Source: Escherichia phage B2
Reading direction: 5' to 3' (one strand)
Sequence record: NC_073069.1
Length of the DNA stretch: 44,283 bases
Shown here: piece by piece, positions 7,839-35,322 of the stretch
Layout: every line of letters starts with the position of its first letter
Numbering within the stretch: the first letter of the stretch is position 1
Notes under the pieces: model-generated
Seen by the model: the letters and a program-made list of their open reading frames with translations, nothing else
Databases searched by the model: none
Told to the model about the DNA's origin: nothing
Translations under genes and position numbers: made by a program

Positions 7839-8414
7839 ATGTACGGCGAATATGAAATAACCGGTAAACAATTCCACCTGGCGGCAATGATTGCAAGCAT
7901 CGAGTTTGAACAGTGGCGATACAAGTCTGACGCGTGCAAGCAAAGCAGACTCGTCGGTGTGCTGGGCGAAATGTTTGCAGGCATGTACCTCGAAGGGCAG
8001 GCGGGCGGGCGTAGCTGTATCCCGCAAGGTTTGCTAATGCGTACCGGCCTGTTTAGCGCTAACACTATCGACCGCGGCGATATTATCATGGTTGGCAAGC
8101 GCAAGGTAAAATCCGGTCCCGACTTCCGCGAACATATGATTGATGCCGTCTGGACCTACGAGGTTAAGGCTACCAGCGGCATCCGTCGTGGGCTGGTTGA
8201 GGCACGTTGCGCTCGCGAGTATCTCACTCGTCGAGTTGCCGGTGTTATTCTGGTGGGGGTGTCGTTCGGGCAGCATAGCGCCAGCGGCGTGATTGAGGAT
8301 ATTGCGGAGCCATACGTGATAGTTAACGATTGGCCCCTGGTGGAAGTGGACGGTAAGGAATATTACGAAAGCCCGCTTGTGCGGCGCAAAATGGACTGGG
8401 AAAACTCAAACTAA
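7839..8414 (+). CDS. hypothetical protein, possible PD-(D/E)xK-like fold
   Basis: 191 aa with gaggga SD; GDIIMVG followed by TYEVK suggests a nuclease-like D...ExK arrangement, weakly supported. Confidence 0.4.
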   Translation: MYGEYEITGKQFHLAAMIASIEFEQWRYKSDACKQSRLVGVLGEMFAGMYLEGQAGGRSCIPQGLLMRTGLFSANTIDRGDIIMVGKRKVKSGPDFREHMIDAVWTYEVKATSGIRRGLVEARCAREYLTRRVAGVILVGVSFGQHSASGVIEDIAEPYVIVNDWPLVEVDGKEYYESPLVRRKMDWENSN

Positions 8415-8445
8415 AAATAGGGGCCATATGGCCCCTTATCCTTAT
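8412..8445. terminator. bidirectional intrinsic terminator between convergent genes
   Basis: aggggcc-atat-ggcccct hairpin flanked by A-run on one side and T-rich run on the other. Confidence 0.6.
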
Positions 8446-10265
8446 TTCTCCGCTAACTTACTTTCTAACGCCTCAACCTTCGCCGCCAAATGCTGAACAG
8501 TAGCGATGAGGTCAAGTAGCAGGACGTTTTCGTCTAATGCCAGAAACTCTTTACCCGTTGCGCTGGTGTACTTACGAACATACTGCGGGTCGATCTCTTC
8601 CAACTGCTGCGCGATAAAACCACGTCTGACCGTTTCCTTTTTGTCGTAGTTATAAACAAAGGAAGAGTATTCCATTGCCATAACGTTATCGAACGCAACT
8701 TGAGTGCCGATCCTGGCGATATCATGCTTCAGCGCCCTGTCGGACACAGGGGACTTTGAGAAAAGATAGTTAACAGTCCCGGAGTTGTTGCCAAAGGTAA
8801 TTTCGTAGCCTTCTGGGTTAAAGGTAGTATTTCGAATGATATCGCCGTTAGGCTGTACTCCTGACGCCATATCATAGTCAAAGACCTGCGAAATCATAGC
8901 GTGAGGGTGGGACGACGCCGATACGGGGTGAATCAACGCCCCGAACGAAATAAAGTTACGCCACCCGCCACCTGTCGTACCAGTGCCGCCGCCGACAAAA
9001 CCTACGTGACCCGCGTATTGACCGCTATTCCATGTATTCGCGAGGGTGACGTAGGTATTACCCGGCGACGCCGCGGTGGACGATGGATTCAGTCCTTTGT
9101 TGAAAATGATCTTGCCATCATATTTAAAGTCCCACGACGGCGAGGTCACCGGGTTGAGGGCGTTAACGGTCGCCAAACGGGTCCAGGCGTCTACGTTATT
9201 ACGGCCTTGAATCTGTAGCGACGTTCTGTATTTTTCGGCCCCAGCAACGATCACAGATGAGTCAAATCTACCGCCGTATACTTCTGTGCCATTCGCCGGA
9301 TCTGAAGCGTAATTATTGCGTAATCCCCAAAGTCCCACGTCATCAAGGCCGCGCCACACCCACCCTTTAGTCGCAGAGTCGAGAGGGTCGACTGGATCCG
9401 CTCCTACGCGAAGCGGTCCTGACGGCATAAGGTTAGCCCACGACGCACTTTTGTCCGCAAGCCCGGCGAGGTTGCCGGATTTAGTAAGCAGATTGTCGGG
9501 GTTTACGCTTTGCGCCCATTCTTCGGCCTGATCGCGAAATCCCTGCGCGGCAGTGCTGGCGGCTTGCGCTTCAGCCTTCGCGGCGTTGGCCTCGTCGCGA
9601 ATAGCGCCGGTGTCAGTCTTGATCTGGTTAGTCTGGTCTTTGATCGCCTGCGTATCTGCCTTAATCTGGTCAGTCTGCGTCTTGATGGTATTAGTGGCGT
9701 CGCGAATGCCTGCCGTCTCTGCCTTAATCTGATTGGTGGCGTCGCGAATACCAGCCGTCTCAGTCTTGAAGCCTTCGGCCTCATTGCGAAATCCGTGCGC
9801 TGCTGCTTCAGATGCCGCGGCTTGTTGTTGCAGGTTGCGCATTTCAACGGGGTCAACTTGCTTCATTAATTGCGACAGATAGCCCCAGGACATACCCTGC
9901 ATAACTTGCCCGTTCGGCAGCGTTACCGTGATTTCTTCTTCGTCTCCGAAGATTGCGCGCCAGTTGTTTTCGTCCGCGAGCATCAAGCGCAACGCTTTCT
10001 GCGCCTGGACTGTTACGCCCATCGTTGCCAGCGACATGGTATCGCGCTTAACGCCATCCCACGCGAGGCCAGTTGCCGTTGGGCCGTCGAACGGCAGCAC
10101 CAGCGTAAGCGCGGTGTCACTTTCGACTGACGCGATAGCAACAGTGTATGGGACTTGCCCCACTACCAGCGATAAGAAGTCGCCTGCTGTAAACAAGGTA
10201 AACGTCGTGCCTACCCCGACAACCGCCTTGCTGTTATTCGTTACGGATAGTGTACCCGCTGCCAT
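8442..10265 (-). CDS. tail fibre with C-terminal intramolecular chaperone (peptidase S74-like) domain
   Basis: Start at second ATG (10265) with gagga SD; central heptad-like repeats TAGIRDATNQIK; C-terminal SPVSDRALKHDIARIG matches the autoproteolytic chaperone signature. Confidence 0.8.
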   Translation of the reverse strand: MAAGTLSVTNNSKAVVGVGTTFTLFTAGDFLSLVVGQVPYTVAIASVESDTALTLVLPFDGPTATGLAWDGVKRDTMSLATMGVTVQAQKALRLMLADENNWRAIFGDEEEITVTLPNGQVMQGMSWGYLSQLMKQVDPVEMRNLQQQAAASEAAAHGFRNEAEGFKTETAGIRDATNQIKAETAGIRDATNTIKTQTDQIKADTQAIKDQTNQIKTDTGAIRDEANAAKAEAQAASTAAQGFRDQAEEWAQSVNPDNLLTKSGNLAGLADKSASWANLMPSGPLRVGADPVDPLDSATKGWVWRGLDDVGLWGLRNNYASDPANGTEVYGGRFDSSVIVAGAEKYRTSLQIQGRNNVDAWTRLATVNALNPVTSPSWDFKYDGKIIFNKGLNPSSTAASPGNTYVTLANTWNSGQYAGHVGFVGGGTGTTGGGWRNFISFGALIHPVSASSHPHAMISQVFDYDMASGVQPNGDIIRNTTFNPEGYEITFGNNSGTVNYLFSKSPVSDRALKHDIARIGTQVAFDNVMAMEYSSFVYNYDKKETVRRGFIAQQLEEIDPQYVRKYTSATGKEFLALDENVLLLDLIATVQHLAAKVEALESKLAEK

Positions 10266-10281
10266 AGCTGAATCCTCATAA

Positions 10282-10305
10282 ATTGGTTGCATTAATGGTT
10301 AAGCA
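10282..10305 (+). promoter_or_regulatory. ATTGGTTGCA motif upstream of the lipoprotein gene
   Basis: attggttgca at 10282-10291, about 55 nt upstream of ATG 10346. Confidence 0.4.
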
Positions 10306-10345: not shown

Positions 10346-10630
10346 ATGAAAACTTTAATTATGATTTGTGCGGTTCTTTTGTCCGGTTGTGCCGACATGC
10401 CGTCTAAAATCTGCGACGCAACATACATGAATAGTGGTATGGAGTATTCCGTCCCGGTGTTTGGGGTCGCCGACTTTAGCGGACATAAAATGTTACGGGC
10501 GGGATACCCATTCAACTTCCAGTATGTGTCGGTCGACCACTTCAAAAGCACCACCTGCGAATACGCCCCGAAAGGGGCTTTTTATATCCCGTCCACGTTA
10601 ATTGCGGTCAGCGCAACTCCGGTGTTTTGA
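10346..10630 (+). CDS. lipoprotein (candidate receptor-blocking superinfection exclusion protein)
   Basis: aggaga SD then ATG 10346; signal peptide MKTLIMICAVLLSGC with lipobox LSGC; opposite strand to flanking tail genes. Confidence 0.55.
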   Translation: MKTLIMICAVLLSGCADMPSKICDATYMNSGMEYSVPVFGVADFSGHKMLRAGYPFNFQYVSVDHFKSTTCEYAPKGAFYIPSTLIAVSATPVF

Positions 10631-26287: not shown

Positions 26288-26390
26288 GCTATCCCCCTGG
26301 GATTGTGGCAAAGCGGGCCACCCGCTTGACTTCACGCCTTAATATTATCAGCGATAAAAATAATCGCAAAATTCGCTTGCATTGCGGATG

Positions 26391-26418
26391 TTGGTTGCAG
26401 TATATTGGTTGCACACCA
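26391..26418 (+). promoter_or_regulatory. tandem TTGGTTGCA motifs upstream of the + strand moron cassette
   Basis: ttggttgcagtatattggttgcacaccaaca; the 18-nt ATTGGTTGCACACCAACA also occurs upstream of the 37075 gene. Confidence 0.45.
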
Positions 26419-26441
26419 ACAGAGATATGAAGGAAGACAAA

Positions 26442-26756
26442 ATGGCTAACATGACCGTAGCAACTCCAGTAGACGCCGCAATGGCCCGTTTCAATAAAGC
26501 TACCGTAGCGAATACCTTTACCTTTCACGCAATGCGTAACGCGGAAGCGCTGAATCTGTGCCAGAGCATGAATGCATCTGAAGCGGCAAAAGCGGCGATC
26601 AACTCCGCGACATTCGATAATCCGGCTTGCGGCCTGGTCCCGGCATCTTTCATAAACGCGCTGGTCGAAGCCTTTAACGATTTCATGTGCGTCGATGCCG
26701 TTGAAGCGGTATGTGCTCGCTTAACTTCCACCGGCGGTAACATCAAATTCAACTAA
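26442..26756 (+). CDS. hypothetical protein (moron gene 1)
   Basis: gaaggaag SD then ATG 26442; about 105 aa, alanine-rich, no recognised motif. Confidence 0.45.
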   Translation: MANMTVATPVDAAMARFNKATVANTFTFHAMRNAEALNLCQSMNASEAAKAAINSATFDNPACGLVPASFINALVEAFNDFMCVDAVEAVCARLTSTGGNIKFN

Positions 26757-26795: not shown

Positions 26796-27560
26796 ATGAG
26801 ACTGACGAAAGATATTAAAAATCAGATTCTGGCTAACATTCTGCGCGATCACGAAATCGCATCCGAAGCCAAACAAATCATGATGGACTCTCGCGACCTG
26901 GCGTACGCAATCACGCTGGACTGTATGCCGGACGGCATTCGCACATTCGCCGCGCTACGCGAGCATATCCTGCTAATCCGCGATGACCAGTCGCAGATGT
27001 ACGGCGTCAGCGTATACACCAACAAGGCGACGTATAGTTATAACTCCGACCGCCCGAAGGGTATCGGCAGCGTCTATAACGCCACCTTTGAAATCAACGC
27101 AGGCGGCAATGTTCGCACCTTGTCATTGAGCGGCGACGGTCGCCAACACCGCATACATCGCGGGTACTGGGAAGAGAAATATATGAATAAGCTCTCGCCT
27201 GATCTCGGCGATATCGTTCCGGGGTTCGAGACAGTTATGCTGGCTTCAGTGTGTGAAGTGGACGAGGACGGGAAAGCGCTGCCGATATATCTCCCTCGCG
27301 GTCGCGTAGACTACCCGGCAGATCATGATTTCTGCAAGCGCCTGGACCGCAACGACAAGGCACGTCGCGAGTTGCGCGCGAAGTATGACGCGTTCAAACT
27401 CACCGTTACCGGCTTGCTGGATATGCACAATACGGACAAGAAGCTGATTAAGGTATGGCCTAAAGTTGAGCAATTCATCCCGTACCCGGACAAGCCAAAA
27501 TCCACGGCGGTGGCGCTGGATGTGAAAACACTCAACGAGATTTGCGGCATTCCGCGCTAA
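26796..27560 (+). CDS. hypothetical protein (moron gene 2)
   Basis: 254 aa ORF, no recognised motif; followed by a bidirectional terminator. Confidence 0.5.
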   Translation: MRLTKDIKNQILANILRDHEIASEAKQIMMDSRDLAYAITLDCMPDGIRTFAALREHILLIRDDQSQMYGVSVYTNKATYSYNSDRPKGIGSVYNATFEINAGGNVRTLSLSGDGRQHRIHRGYWEEKYMNKLSPDLGDIVPGFETVMLASVCEVDEDGKALPIYLPRGRVDYPADHDFCKRLDRNDKARRELRAKYDAFKLTVTGLLDMHNTDKKLIKVWPKVEQFIPYPDKPKSTAVALDVKTLNEICGIPR

Positions 27561-27563
27561 CGA

Positions 27564-27585
27564 AAAGGGGCCATTACGGCCCCTT
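27564..27585. terminator. bidirectional intrinsic terminator
   Basis: aaggggcc-atta-cggcccctt hairpin with T-rich runs on both strands; overlaps the o-spanin stop codon. Confidence 0.6.
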
Positions 27586-27813
27586 AATTATTTGCTGCAA
27601 CTCCAGCACCTGCGCCCTTAGCTTCGCGCCGCATTCCATATTTTTCACGTCAATCATCAAATCTTCGTCGGGGTCTGCGGACGGGCTATCGAACTTGCAC
27701 GGCGGTCGCAGTGCCGACTCCGTTAGCGGCATCAACGGCACGTTGCTTGATCCGCACGCGCTCAGCATCAAAACTACAATCAGGGCGGTTAGGGCGCGTA
27801 ACATATTTAACAA
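27574..27813 (-). CDS. o-spanin (Rz1-like outer membrane lipoprotein)
   Basis: Signal peptide with lipobox LSAC, proline-rich short mature region; starts inside the i-spanin gene in another frame. Confidence 0.6.
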   Translation of the reverse strand: MLNMLRALTALIVVLMLSACGSSNVPLMPLTESALRPPCKFDSPSADPDEDLMIDVKNMECGAKLRAQVLELQQIIKGP

Positions 27814-28015
27814 CCTCTTTCGTGATAGTCCGGTATTCTACGTCGCGGGCCTGTTCGGCCTGCACGGAGCGCTCAACAACTTTAGTTTGCTGCCGTTGGG
27901 CTTGGGCTTGCGCTTCTTGCGCCGCCTCCGCCACTACGCCAGCGCGATAGGAGTCACCTAGCCAGAATCCTACCGCCAGACCGATAACCAGTCCAATCGC
28001 TGCATATTTAATCAC
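27686..28015 (-). CDS. i-spanin (Rz-like)
   Basis: N-terminal transmembrane helix IGLVIGLAVGFWLG followed by Q/A-rich coiled-coil-like segment. Confidence 0.55.
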   Translation of the reverse strand: MIKYAAIGLVIGLAVGFWLGDSYRAGVVAEAAQEAQAQAQRQQTKVVERSVQAEQARDVEYRTITKEVVKYVTRPNRPDCSFDAERVRIKQRAVDAANGVGTATAVQVR

Positions 28016-29111
28016 GCCATAACCCCCGGTTTTTAAGCTGTGCGATAGTCATTAGTTCGCCGGAATCGGTGAACATCTTCGGCACTTTCACGCCGCGCAT
28101 AATCTGGTCGGCGCGTTGCACTCCGTATAACTCTTCCAGGATATGGCGCGGCTGGCGCTGCACCCATGAGAAGAAATCAGTCTGCGCGTCAACCTGCTCA
28201 CTCAGCAATCTGCCCGCGTCAGCCTTCAGTGCCGGACGCTTACCACTGGGCCAATCTTCCATGCCTTTAACCACCCACGTCTCCGTCGACCGGCAACAAT
28301 AATGCAACTTGCCCGGACCAGCGCCGTATTGTGACCCCGCCACCATTTTCCCGCCGCGCTTTCCTTTGGTGTCGGGAGTAACATCAACCGGATAAAACAG
28401 GCGATCGCGTAGCTGGCACATGGGAGAAGTATGCGTGTCCAATGTAGATAACCATTGGCGACCTTCGAGAATATCGTCATTTGCTTTTACCATTAGTTCG
28501 CGGGCTGTCGCCGCATAGTGGTTGACTGCGGACTTAACAACGCTTGAGATGGCTTGCGCACTACGACCGCCGAGCGCGCGCCTCACGTCCGCTATAATTT
28601 CCATAGTTGGCTTGCCCTGGATGAATCCAGCGCGCACCTGATTACCGATCTGCGTCCTGGTCCACTCAGAAAGGGAGTCAGGCCATTGCGTCATCGTATT
28701 GCCCTGGAACGGGTTTTTCATCGCAGTCGCTGCGATCTGCGCACCTGTCACCACGCCCACCACCTCGATCGCAGGTACGGCGGCCACCGGCTGGATCGCT
28801 GCCGTTAATGTGTCGGTGAGATAATCAGCCTCCGTGTCGGCGAACTCCTGAAGGCTTTCAGCCAACGCCTTAAACTCGGTGCGCAATTCTGATTTAACGG
28901 TCTTGTCGATTTGCGTTAGCAGGGTGGAAAGTGCCCGGTTATTCATTGACGATTTGCCATCAAGCAACTCGGTAAGCTTCCCCAGTAATGTAGGCCGGAA
29001 CTTCTCCCACATGGACAGCACCCTTCGCGCCTGGTCATTGCTCAGGCGCTGGGTGAAGATGTGACGGCGAATCATTCGATCCGCCAAATGTTGATTAATT
29101 GTCTTCGCCAT
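28008..29111 (-). CDS. head morphogenesis/minor capsid protein (Mu gpF / SPP1 gp7-like)
   Basis: 367 aa directly downstream of the portal gene with overlapping start/stop; typical order. Confidence 0.65.
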   Translation of the reverse strand: MAKTINQHLADRMIRRHIFTQRLSNDQARRVLSMWEKFRPTLLGKLTELLDGKSSMNNRALSTLLTQIDKTVKSELRTEFKALAESLQEFADTEADYLTDTLTAAIQPVAAVPAIEVVGVVTGAQIAATAMKNPFQGNTMTQWPDSLSEWTRTQIGNQVRAGFIQGKPTMEIIADVRRALGGRSAQAISSVVKSAVNHYAATARELMVKANDDILEGRQWLSTLDTHTSPMCQLRDRLFYPVDVTPDTKGKRGGKMVAGSQYGAGPGKLHYCCRSTETWVVKGMEDWPSGKRPALKADAGRLLSEQVDAQTDFFSWVQRQPRHILEELYGVQRADQIMRGVKVPKMFTDSGELMTIAQLKNRGLWRD

Positions 29112-32627: not shown

Positions 32628-32668
32628 ATGGGGATTATAACAGGCACAAAAAAGCCCACCAAATCGGC
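32628..32668 (-). promoter_or_regulatory. sigma70-like extended -10 promoter upstream of the terminase genes
   Basis: tgttataat on the minus strand (TGn-TATAAT) about 65 nt upstream of the small terminase start. Confidence 0.4.
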
Positions 32669-32693
32669 AGGCTGGGAGTATTACTGGTTGTCG

Positions 32694-34041: not shown

Positions 34042-34067
34042 TAAAAAGCCCGGTTAATTCCGGGCTT
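34042..34067 (-). terminator. intrinsic terminator downstream of the lysis cassette
   Basis: aagcccgg-aattaa-ccgggctt on the minus strand followed by tttttatt. Confidence 0.6.
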
Positions 34068-34073
34068 AATTGT

Positions 34074-34241
34074 TTACGCTGCGGGGCCAGATTCCTCCTG
34101 CGGTGGTGGGCTTGGCAGCTTCGCATCGAAGACCCCGGCGTGGTTGATAGAGTCCGCGATGATAGCGCGTGCGCCTGGGTCTTCGGTTTTAGCCAGTGCG
34201 GCAAGCGCGTCCGCATTATGATCAAGAATACTTTTTAACAT
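34074..34241 (-). CDS. small hypothetical protein downstream of the endolysin gene
   Basis: 55 aa ORF (MLKSILDHNADALAALAKTEDPGARAIIADS...) with gaggt SD; below the track size cutoff. Confidence 0.35.
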   Translation of the reverse strand: MLKSILDHNADALAALAKTEDPGARAIIADSINHAGVFDAKLPSPPPQEESGPAA

Positions 34242-34257: not shown

Positions 34258-34749
34258 TTATGCTGCGTTACGTCCGATTTTCTCGGCAACGTCCCACTGC
34301 TTGCCATCGAATAGTGCTTGCCTGCCGATTGCGCGACGGACCAGACCTAAGAGCACCGATCCACCTTGCTTGCGGAACTGCGGCAGAATAGCACGGACCT
34401 TCGCCCAATCGCCCAGTCGCACCGCATCATCGAAATCGTTCGCGACGTCATCCGGCACGATCGGACCCGGACCGGCGTTGATTACCAGATCCACCAGCGC
34501 GTCGAATTGCGCCTGGTTAATGCTCGGATGTGCGTATTTGTTCACCCAGTCCTCGGCATACGCCACATCTCGCCTGAGCAGTTCCAGCGCTTCCGCACGG
34601 GTAATGCTTCGTGGCGGATTAGTGCCGGTGTGACCATAGCCCCAGGTGTACAGGCCGCGGGCCTGCTCTTTCTTGGTCGCGAAATACGGCACTGGGCTGA
34701 AAGTCTCCCATGCTGCCGTAAATCGTAGACCGTTGTCACTGAATCGCAT
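34258..34749 (-). CDS. endolysin (phage lysozyme-like, GH24-type)
   Basis: N-terminal catalytic region TAAWETFSPVPYF...GLYTWGYGHTG resembles phage lysozymes; adjacent to holin genes. Confidence 0.7.
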   Translation of the reverse strand: MRFSDNGLRFTAAWETFSPVPYFATKKEQARGLYTWGYGHTGTNPPRSITRAEALELLRRDVAYAEDWVNKYAHPSINQAQFDALVDLVINAGPGPIVPDDVANDFDDAVRLGDWAKVRAILPQFRKQGGSVLLGLVRRAIGRQALFDGKQWDVAEKIGRNAA

Positions 34750-34981
34750 GTTTTACCCCATTCAAAACAGCATTACGCAGGGTGCGCAATGCAAACAGCC
34801 AGATTAACGCGGTCCAGGTGGTATCAGATACGTCTCCTGTTTGCAGCAATCCGATAAAACAGACCATTGCCGTTAACAGATACAGCACCCGACCGAAAAT
34901 GCCATCCTGGACGGACGGCGCATACACGTTAAACAGGGACGAAGCCCCTATGATAACAAACAACAGGACGGAGATAATCAT
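34736..34981 (-). CDS. holin-like small membrane protein
   Basis: 81 aa with two hydrophobic helices; ATGA overlap with the upstream holin gene; overlaps the endolysin start. Confidence 0.5.
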   Translation of the reverse strand: MIISVLLFVIIGASSLFNVYAPSVQDGIFGRVLYLLTAMVCFIGLLQTGDVSDTTWTALIWLFALRTLRNAVLNGVKHAIQ

Positions 34982-35268
34982 TTTGCACCCCCCGGAAGTC
35001 GGAACGACGCAATAGTCTCCCTGATCCGGTCGGCGATTGGCATCCAGAAGATTGCGGTTACGAAGCCTAAACCGGCGACAGTGCGCTCACCCGACAAACC
35101 AGCCCACTCGGCAATAGCCGGTGCGCCAAATATGGCACACAGGAAGCCAACTACAACATACAAAACGAAGTTTAGCGGCCCCTTCGTAGCCTCACCATGA
35201 ATGCGTGCGCCTACGAAGCCACCCGCCAGACATGCCAGGGCGAATAGCCACTCGTTTAGCTTATCCAT
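34978..35268 (-). CDS. holin
   Basis: 96 aa with three predicted transmembrane segments and a charged C-terminus. Confidence 0.55.
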   Translation of the reverse strand: MDKLNEWLFALACLAGGFVGARIHGEATKGPLNFVLYVVVGFLCAIFGAPAIAEWAGLSGERTVAGLGFVTAIFWMPIADRIRETIASFRLPGGAK

Positions 35269-35322
35269 AAAAAAAAGTCCCAGTAAGTTTTAGCTCACTG
35301 GGACTATATCACGCTTGCATAA

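Follow-up and report, generated by a model that had tools for sequence, protein, structure and literature searches.

The 442-nt locus at positions 27574 to 28015 of the window, the 44,283-nt stretch of Escherichia phage B2 DNA (NC_073069.1) that was analysed, very probably encodes on its minus strand the two-component spanin of a Dhillonvirus, belonging to the 'Jersey' family of overlapped spanins. The pair was correctly recognised by the first-pass annotation, but it is already catalogued and is ordinary for Dhillonvirus. The interval claimed for it proved exact, running on the minus strand from the o-spanin stop codon to the i-spanin start codon, and the title of that annotation rightly described the two genes as overlapped. 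Its text called the o-spanin gene 'embedded', a description that we could not uphold: the gene extends 112 nt past the i-spanin stop codon, and the architecture is therefore overlapped, not embedded.

Megablast comparison of positions 27400-28200 matched 156 phage records, 151 of them at full length, with the best matches (96-97.5% identity) found in the Escherichia phages PEC14, PEC9 and YD-2008.s and the Shigella phage EP23. All of the top matches were Dhillonvirus, so the 44.3-kb window represents an essentially complete Dhillonvirus genome; these phages are also described as HK578-like siphoviruses. For comparative analysis we used 11 Dhillonviruses, namely the window genome, YD-2008.s, EP23, EK99P-1, Zar3M, PaulFeyerabend, Oekolampad, Pride, JLBYU37, CHD2B1 and SO-1, among which the 442-nt spanin locus showed no indels and both reading frames were intact (11 of 11).

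The i-spanin gene (27686..28015, minus strand) begins with GTG and encodes 109 aa, matching the PHROG profile phrog_2536, 'Rz-like spanin', at 1.9e-36. Its product starts with the sequence MIKYAAIGLVIGLAVGFWLG and is polar and charged over the remainder of its length. The hydrophobic N-terminus MIKYAAIGLVIGLAVGFWL has a mean Kyte-Doolittle hydropathy of 1.9 over residues 1-19, from which a transmembrane helix was predicted at residues 2-20 (IKYAAIGLVIGLAVGFWLG; 27956..28012, minus strand), and no second hydrophobic segment was seen by hydropathy across all 109 aa. Together with a helix placed there by AF2, these values agree with the N-terminal transmembrane helix that had been proposed for this protein, and the segment is nearly invariant among homologues. 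The AF2 model, a monomer of low confidence (mean pLDDT 57), comprises a helix at residues 3-73, a break at 74-83 (RPNRPDCSFD) and a second helix at 84-97, so that the periplasmic domain appears as two predicted helices with an RPNRPDC linker between them. For the coiled coil that the first-pass annotation proposed here, the model thus offers helices at low confidence, which speak neither for it nor against it. Among the 11 Dhillonviruses the i-spanin is 109 aa long in five and 102 aa long in six. Against gp09 of phage Jersey it shows 39% identity, with Cys80 and a KYVTRP motif aligned.

The o-spanin gene (27574..27804, minus strand), which lies in the +1 frame relative to the i-spanin gene, starts with ATG and encodes 76 aa, a length that is constant in all 11 Dhillonviruses. 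The protein begins MLRALTALIVVLMLSAC, and inspection of this sequence identified a signal peptide and lipobox, MLRALTALIVVLM-LSAC (27754..27804, minus strand), in which the signal MLRALTALIVVLMLSA directly precedes Cys17 and a glycine occupies position +2. Cys17 is the predicted site of lipidation, and with glycine at +2 the protein is predicted to reach the outer membrane. The LSAC lipobox noted in the first reading of this sequence was confirmed, being present as LSAC or MSAC in each of the 11 Dhillonviruses and as LNGC in Jersey. The same reading described the protein as proline-rich; prolines are indeed present, but their content is merely moderate (7 of the 60 residues of the mature form, or 11.7%). 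Two further cysteines, Cys36 and Cys58, lie in the mature protein, and with i-spanin Cys80 these make up the periplasmic cysteines that could be used for intermolecular disulfides, all three of which are kept as far as Jersey. AF2 predicted a signal helix at residues 2-16, an unstructured linker at 17-44 and a helix at 45-74 with pLDDT of about 90. We rejected a unimolecular spanin of the T1 gp11 type, in which one protein combines an N-terminal lipobox with a C-terminal transmembrane helix, as the C-terminus AKLRAQVLELQQIIKGP is amphipathic and charged and forms no membrane helix.

Conservation of the o-spanin extends through its N-terminus. Alignment with Jersey gp10 gave 50% identity, with the signal peptide, Cys17, Cys36 and Cys58 all in register, and tblastn with the complete 76-aa protein found 586 phage records at a query coverage of at least 80%, the signal peptide included; in Jersey-like Salmonella phages the matches, at 40-47% identity, began at residue 1 or 2. 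A Shine-Dalgarno-like AAGAGG (27814..27819, minus strand), located inside the i-spanin frame 9 nt 5′ of the o-spanin ATG, is kept in the 8 relatives aligned. A TTG at 27813, which would give a protein of 79 aa, was considered as an alternative start and rejected, since several relatives have a stop codon directly before N-M-L-R, so only the ATG at 27804 is available to all of them. The in-frame TTG at 27813 is itself present in some relatives only.

The two genes share a dual-coding overlap of 119 nt (27686..27804, minus strand), defined by the reading frames and the alignment, in which the C-terminal part of the i-spanin is read in frame 0 and the N-terminal part of the o-spanin in frame +1; it shortens to 98 nt in those relatives whose i-spanin has 102 aa. 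Variation among the 11 Dhillonviruses followed the reading frame on either side of it. In the part coding for the i-spanin only, 32 of 51 variable columns fell at codon position 3 of the i-spanin frame (p = 1.6e-5), and in the part coding for the o-spanin only, the corresponding count for the o-spanin frame was 22 of 30 (p = 8.8e-6). Variability was lowest in the overlap (0.18 per nt versus 0.24 and 0.28 in the single-coding parts), with no clear preference for codon position. These alignment patterns show purifying selection acting in each of the two frames. The final 24 nt of the long i-spanin tail varied as sequence coding in the o-spanin frame only, which fits the published variability of the extreme i-spanin C-terminus (Kongari et al. 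2018, PMC6139136).

Profile searches placed both proteins in a catalogued family. In addition to the i-spanin match given above, the o-spanin matched phrog_5672 (4e-26), in an alignment limited to residues 32-76, and phrog_1267 (1.5e-11), which covered residues 4-74. Neither protein had a Pfam-A match at E <= 1, the lambda Rz and Rz1 families included; we therefore rejected membership in these sequence families and do not regard the window spanins as sequence relatives of lambda Rz/Rz1. Protein database searches returned 61 and 7 clusters, consisting of close Dhillonvirus relatives only and no distant homologues. The 'Jersey' families of overlapped i-spanins and o-spanins as published include EP23, HK578, JL1, SSL-2009a and SO-1 (Kongari et al. 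2018, PMC6139136); they correspond to phrog_2536 for the i-spanin and to phrog_5672 and phrog_1267 for the o-spanin. Within them, the i-spanins of the subfamily from EP23 to SO-1 are described as shorter, consisting of two helices joined by a short linker, and the o-spanins of the family as sharing a conserved helix at the C-terminus, a constant pair of cysteines and linkers with conserved prolines (PMC6139136). The AF2 secondary structure of both window proteins is consistent with this description, given a pLDDT of 57 for the i-spanin model. Existing records agree with it as well: both reading frames are labelled 'Rz-like spanin' in the RefSeq entries of EP23, YD-2008.s and SO-1, and in the BASEL records, PaulFeyerabend (Bas15) and Oekolampad (Bas18) each have an i-spanin together with an o-spanin of 76 aa annotated in the corresponding position.

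Measured against the named members, the window pair is closest to the short subfamily. Aligned with its EP23 counterpart, the i-spanin scored 521 (534 when aligned with itself), and the two o-spanins were identical. The pairs of EP23, HK578, JL1, SSL-2009a and SO-1 are likewise overlapped, follow the head morphogenesis gene and have a two-helix i-spanin with a short linker, and as in the window their o-spanins carry two conserved periplasmic cysteines and a C-terminal helix. The window has the 109-aa i-spanin tail and the 119-nt overlap, whereas SO-1, Bas15 and Bas18 have 102 aa and 98 nt; with respect to this subfamily as a whole, the window pair differs in nothing substantial. In the Guernseyvirinae (Jersey, K1G, FSL SP-031 and Schulenberg), the spanins are homologous at greater distance, at the 39% (i-spanin) and 50% (o-spanin) identity to Jersey reported above. 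Jersey has a longer i-spanin (128 aa) and a longer overlap (155 nt), while the genes of FSL SP-031 overlap by 8 nt only and count as 'separated', in contrast to the 119 nt shared by the window pair.

Lambda Rz/Rz1 and the window pair have the same predicted topology, a type II inner-membrane protein and an outer-membrane lipoprotein, and in both systems the o-spanin frame is +1 relative to that of the i-spanin gene and periplasmic cysteines are present. Lambda Rz1 is fully embedded in Rz, and the lambda spanin genes directly follow S and R. Proline content also differs, at 12% in the window o-spanin versus about 24% in lambda Rz1. The window o-spanin has a confidently predicted C-terminal helix, whereas according to Kongari et al. 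2018 (PMC6139136) no secondary structure is predicted for lambda Rz1. The spanins of T4, PseT.3/PseT.2, differ in being of the 'separated' architecture and of another sequence family, and in T4 even the holin gene is separated from the endolysin gene.

Regarding the remainder of the lysis genes, PHROG and Pfam matches confirmed the earlier placement of the holins and endolysin at 34258-35268, all on the minus strand: holin 1 (35268..34978; phrog_2359, 8.5e-32), holin 2 (34981..34736; phrog_2508, 7.9e-28) and endolysin (34749..34258; phrog_7, 1e-34; PF00959 Phage_lysozyme, 2.9e-19). From the end of the endolysin gene to the start of the i-spanin gene there are 6,242 nt, in keeping with the distance of about 6 kb first reported, and the spanins lie downstream on the same strand. 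We looked for a second or unimolecular spanin near the endolysin and rejected the one candidate, a 55-aa reading frame at 34241..34074 that matches phrog_11068 (unknown function) and has neither a membrane helix nor a lipobox. A lipobox scan of the whole genome yielded only Cor, a superinfection-exclusion protein (10346..10630; phrog_1119), plus spurious reading frames inside other genes, and the pair at 27574-28015 is therefore the sole spanin candidate in the genome.

The first-pass annotation had drawn attention to this split lysis cassette and suggested checking whether relatives keep it. The split is real and conserved, being found in each of the 11 Dhillonviruses as well as in Jersey, K1G and FSL SP-031, and within the lineage it is standard rather than peculiar to this genome. 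Every Dhillonvirus inspected had the gene order holin, holin, endolysin, exonuclease, terS, terL, portal, head morphogenesis, i-spanin/o-spanin. In the Guernseyvirinae, the spanin genes are flanked by the head morphogenesis gene and the scaffold gene, and a homologous holin-holin-endolysin unit is located about 8-9 kb upstream. This is the position of gp09/gp10 in Jersey, where gp62-64 (holin-holin-endolysin) are about 8.7 kb upstream, counted across the genome end; the spanins of K1G and FSL SP-031 occupy the same position, and in FSL SP-031 a lysozyme gene is found about 8 kb upstream of them. Jerseyvirus SeF1 and the window genome share their holin PHROGs. For phage Schulenberg it has been stated in print that the spanins stand apart from the rest of the lysis genes, and such a separation is also known from T4 (Kongari et al. 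2018, PMC6139136). With both the identification and the split layout already annotated or published, the arrangement is therefore the norm for the lineage; it is old and already described.

Other readings of the locus were weighed against these data. A membrane protein and a lipoprotein lying among head genes, away from the holin and endolysin, could have some other role, such as superinfection exclusion or accessory morphogenesis, with the outer membrane breached in another way, for instance by a disruptin-like peptide. The lack of any Pfam-A match for the pair, in a search that covered the Rz and Rz1 families, lends something to this view, as does the existence of other phage lipoproteins, of which Cor is encoded in the same genome; moreover, a search of the literature found no experimental tests, complementation or other functional data for any Jersey-family spanin, and annotation of the family rests on topology, gene architecture and homology among its members. 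We nevertheless consider such a role quite improbable, because the pair carries every sequence-level hallmark of a two-component spanin (a membrane helix at the i-spanin N-terminus, an o-spanin lipobox that lacks Asp at +2, genes overlapping out of frame and conserved periplasmic cysteines) and the lipobox scan offered no other spanin candidate in the genome. The position is also less telling than it appears: a distant i-spanin homologue in Vibrio phage pYD38-A directly follows an endolysin and a holin, and spanins separated from other lysis genes are known from T4 (Kongari et al. 2018, PMC6139136). Nor does the separation itself look like a recent rearrangement or an assembly artefact of the window genome, for which the unusual look of the split cassette is the only argument; the same order occurs in 156 related records with 80-99% DNA identity around the locus, the same split is found in three Guernseyvirinae genera, and these conservation data exclude an explanation to which we give next to no chance.

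A further question concerns the extent of the second gene, which is deposited in GenBank/RefSeq for EP23, YD-2008.s, EK99P-1 and Pride as a 52-aa reading frame starting at an internal ATG (MPLTES...). On that reading, the protein would be soluble and without a signal peptide and the upstream overlap would go untranslated, and the coverage of the phrog_5672 profile, limited to o-spanin residues 32-76, is in line with it. The signal peptide and lipobox, however, are conserved in the 11 Dhillonviruses and, at 35-50% identity, in Jersey and FSL SP-031, the AAGAGG 9 nt before the ATG at 27804 is conserved as well, and the curated BASEL and SO-1 records give the 76-aa form. Wrong start calls are also frequent for o-spanin genes, since gene-calling programs tend to avoid overlaps (Kongari et al. 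2018, PMC6139136). The short form is thus extremely improbable in our estimation, and we retain the 76-aa lipoprotein as the o-spanin of an overlapped two-component pair.

The o-spanin gene ends in a GC-rich hairpin (27565..27585) with U/T runs on both strands that folds as a bidirectional terminator-like element. It has the form AAGGGGCC-ATTAC-GGCCCCTT, with a core of GGGGCC-ATTAC-GGCCCC at 27567-27583 and 8 pairs over 27565-27585, and its folding energy is -16.6 kcal/mol on the plus strand (z -3.1) and -18.2 kcal/mol on the minus strand (z -2.8), values that 1 of 200 shuffled sequences equalled. The first-pass annotation had placed the o-spanin stop codon inside a hairpin of this kind, and this proved accurate: the TAA (27576..27574) sits in the loop, and the last codons, K-G-P, make up one arm. 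In a terminator scan the plus strand passed, while the minus strand, with UUUUCGUU after the GC stem, fails the 5-of-8 rule if A-U pairs are counted in the stem; terminator and promoter calls throughout are consensus matches only. All 11 Dhillonviruses kept the hairpin with a stop codon, TAA or TGA, in its loop, and JLBYU37 has one stem mismatch.

On the far side of the hairpin is a convergent neighbour, a 254-aa Nmad5 (nucleotide-modification-associated domain 5) gene (26796..27560, plus strand; PF18757, 1.2e-57) whose stop codon at 27558-27560 falls just outside it, and beyond this a second moron gene, a small reading frame of unknown function (26382..26756, plus strand) that matches phrog_24635. 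The spanins had been said to lie between the head morphogenesis gene and a 'moron cassette'; the position is right, and the cassette amounts to the Nmad5 gene and a small variable reading frame. A role in triggering Tmn defence has been described for Nmad5 in Dhillonvirus (PMC11846954). The content of the slot is variable, with a RusA-like gene and a 765-nt gene in EP23, a RusA-like gene alone ('possible moron') in SO-1, and Nmad5 alone or with other small reading frames in further relatives. In Jersey, the scaffold gene directly follows the o-spanin gene, and both the convergent moron and the terminator hairpin over the stop codon are absent. The Dhillonvirus hairpin goes with the convergent insert. 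As the o-spanin stop lies in the loop, where a terminating ribosome would cover the 5′ arm of the hairpin, translation of the o-spanin could lower termination on the minus strand, although we think it unlikely that it does. If it did, antisense read-through over Nmad5 into the scaffold and major capsid genes would be tuned, linking the last lysis gene to head and moron expression.

The 5′ end of the locus is equally compact. The head morphogenesis gene (28008..29111, minus strand; SPP1 gp7-like minor capsid, phrog_241, 4e-117) has its stop codon in the 8 nt that it shares with the i-spanin GTG (ATGGCGTGATTAA), and this junction is kept in relatives and annotated alike in Bas15. Such a conserved junction suggests translational coupling, and the i-spanin is probably coupled in this way to the head morphogenesis gene. 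Between the endolysin and the spanins we found a hairpin at 34067..34046 (minus strand; dG -16.6, z -3.4) after the endolysin and the 55-aa reading frame, a weak one at 32673..32653 (minus strand; z -1.4) followed by U6 after the exonuclease, and an extended -10 element, TGTTATAAT, at 32642..32634 (minus strand) upstream of terS, which was read by eye and is a candidate lead. A scan found no two-hexamer sigma-70 promoter near the spanins. The two terminator-like hairpins and the extended -10 element suggest that the spanins are probably in the terS unit. In this arrangement, the i-spanin and o-spanin would be the last two genes of the terS-terL-portal-head morphogenesis block, in a transcript that probably runs from terS to the o-spanin, stops at 27565-27585 and is apart from that of the holins and endolysin. 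The hairpin that would end this block may also end the convergent Nmad5 gene.

How the pair would act can be proposed by analogy with lambda Rz/Rz1, as summarised in PMC6139136. The N-terminal helix would hold the i-spanin in the inner membrane, from which a mostly helical domain would extend into the periplasm. The o-spanin precursor would be lipidated at Cys17 and cut by signal peptidase II, and the lack of an Asp at +2 would send it to the outer membrane. Both partners would then bind each other across the periplasm through their C-terminal parts, in complexes that are probably disulfide-linked dimers, joined through i-spanin Cys80 and o-spanin Cys36/Cys58. After the holins and endolysin remove the peptidoglycan, these complexes would fuse or disrupt the outer membrane as the final step of lysis.

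The Jersey spanin family spans more than 600 phage records, and many deposited Dhillonvirus records, together with one PHROG profile, carry the 52-aa o-spanin without its lipobox, which should be corrected. For the biology of these phages, the conserved location of the spanins as the closing genes of the packaging and head gene block would fit late structural expression rather than expression with the holins.

Between the endolysin gene and terS, we found two terminator-like hairpins on the minus strand, one at 34046-34067, after the endolysin gene and a 55-aa ORF, and a weaker one, together with an extended -10 element, at 32634-32673, after the exonuclease gene and upstream of terS. The extended -10 element (TGTTATAAT, 32642..32634) immediately follows the weaker hairpin. 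Read from the sequence, these hairpins and the extended -10 element suggest that the holin-endolysin genes may form a transcription unit apart from the one running from terS to the spanins.

The strongest hairpin of the region lies at the other end of the holin-endolysin genes, at 35276-35305 (minus strand), and adjoins the start of the first holin gene at 35268. It has a 12-bp stem and a predicted dG of -22.6 kcal/mol (z -6.5), a value equalled by none of 200 shuffles, and it is followed by a run of eight U residues leading directly into the AUG of that gene (GGGACUUUUUUUUAUG). No free Shine-Dalgarno sequence is present. The hairpin could be a terminator of the upstream unit, a brake on holin translation, or both.

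Inspection of the records of related phages revealed differences in how the spanin genes are annotated. In the GenBank/RefSeq records of YD-2008.s (9174-9332 of locus L001), EP23 (3175-3333 of L002), EK99P-1 (1573-1731 of L009) and Pride (541-699 of L007), the o-spanin is begun at an internal ATG and called as a 52-aa ORF that lacks both signal peptide and lipobox; the phrog_5672 profile, at 47 positions, is truncated in the same way. In Zar3M, scattered N bases fall within the i-spanin gene of the deposited sequence (approximately 1585-1630 of locus L011), and the i-spanin is left unannotated in that record.

The slot between the o-spanin and scaffold genes is an accessory-gene hotspot, with opposite-strand cargo that differs from one Dhillonvirus to another. 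A RusA-like resolvase occupies it in EP23 and SO-1, the SO-1 record itself remarking 'possible moron' on this gene, and other Dhillonviruses carry Nmad5 there, with or without small ORFs. The slot was examined at 26382-26756 (plus strand) here and in loci L002 (EP23), L009 (EK99P-1), L010, L011 (Zar3M) and L013. The convergent Nmad5 gene (26796-27560, plus strand; 254 aa; PF18757, 1.2e-57) encodes Lys at residue 216, and in the Dhillonvirus SMA8 the Nmad5 change K216E lets the phage evade Tmn defence (PMC11846954). Elsewhere in the genome, a gene standing alone on the plus strand (10346-10630), adjoining the tail fibre gene (8442..10292, minus strand), encodes a 94-aa lipoprotein (lipobox LSGC) with a match at 5e-28 to phrog_1119, the Cor family of superinfection-exclusion proteins.

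A distant homologue of the i-spanin was found in Vibrio phage pYD38-A (39% identity across half of the query, E = 2e-5), where endolysin, holin and spanin genes form a contiguous cassette (8203-9234 of locus L006) that is itself downstream of a head morphogenesis gene. Such an arrangement is a hint that, of the places where the lysis genes now lie, the one in the head module may be the older.
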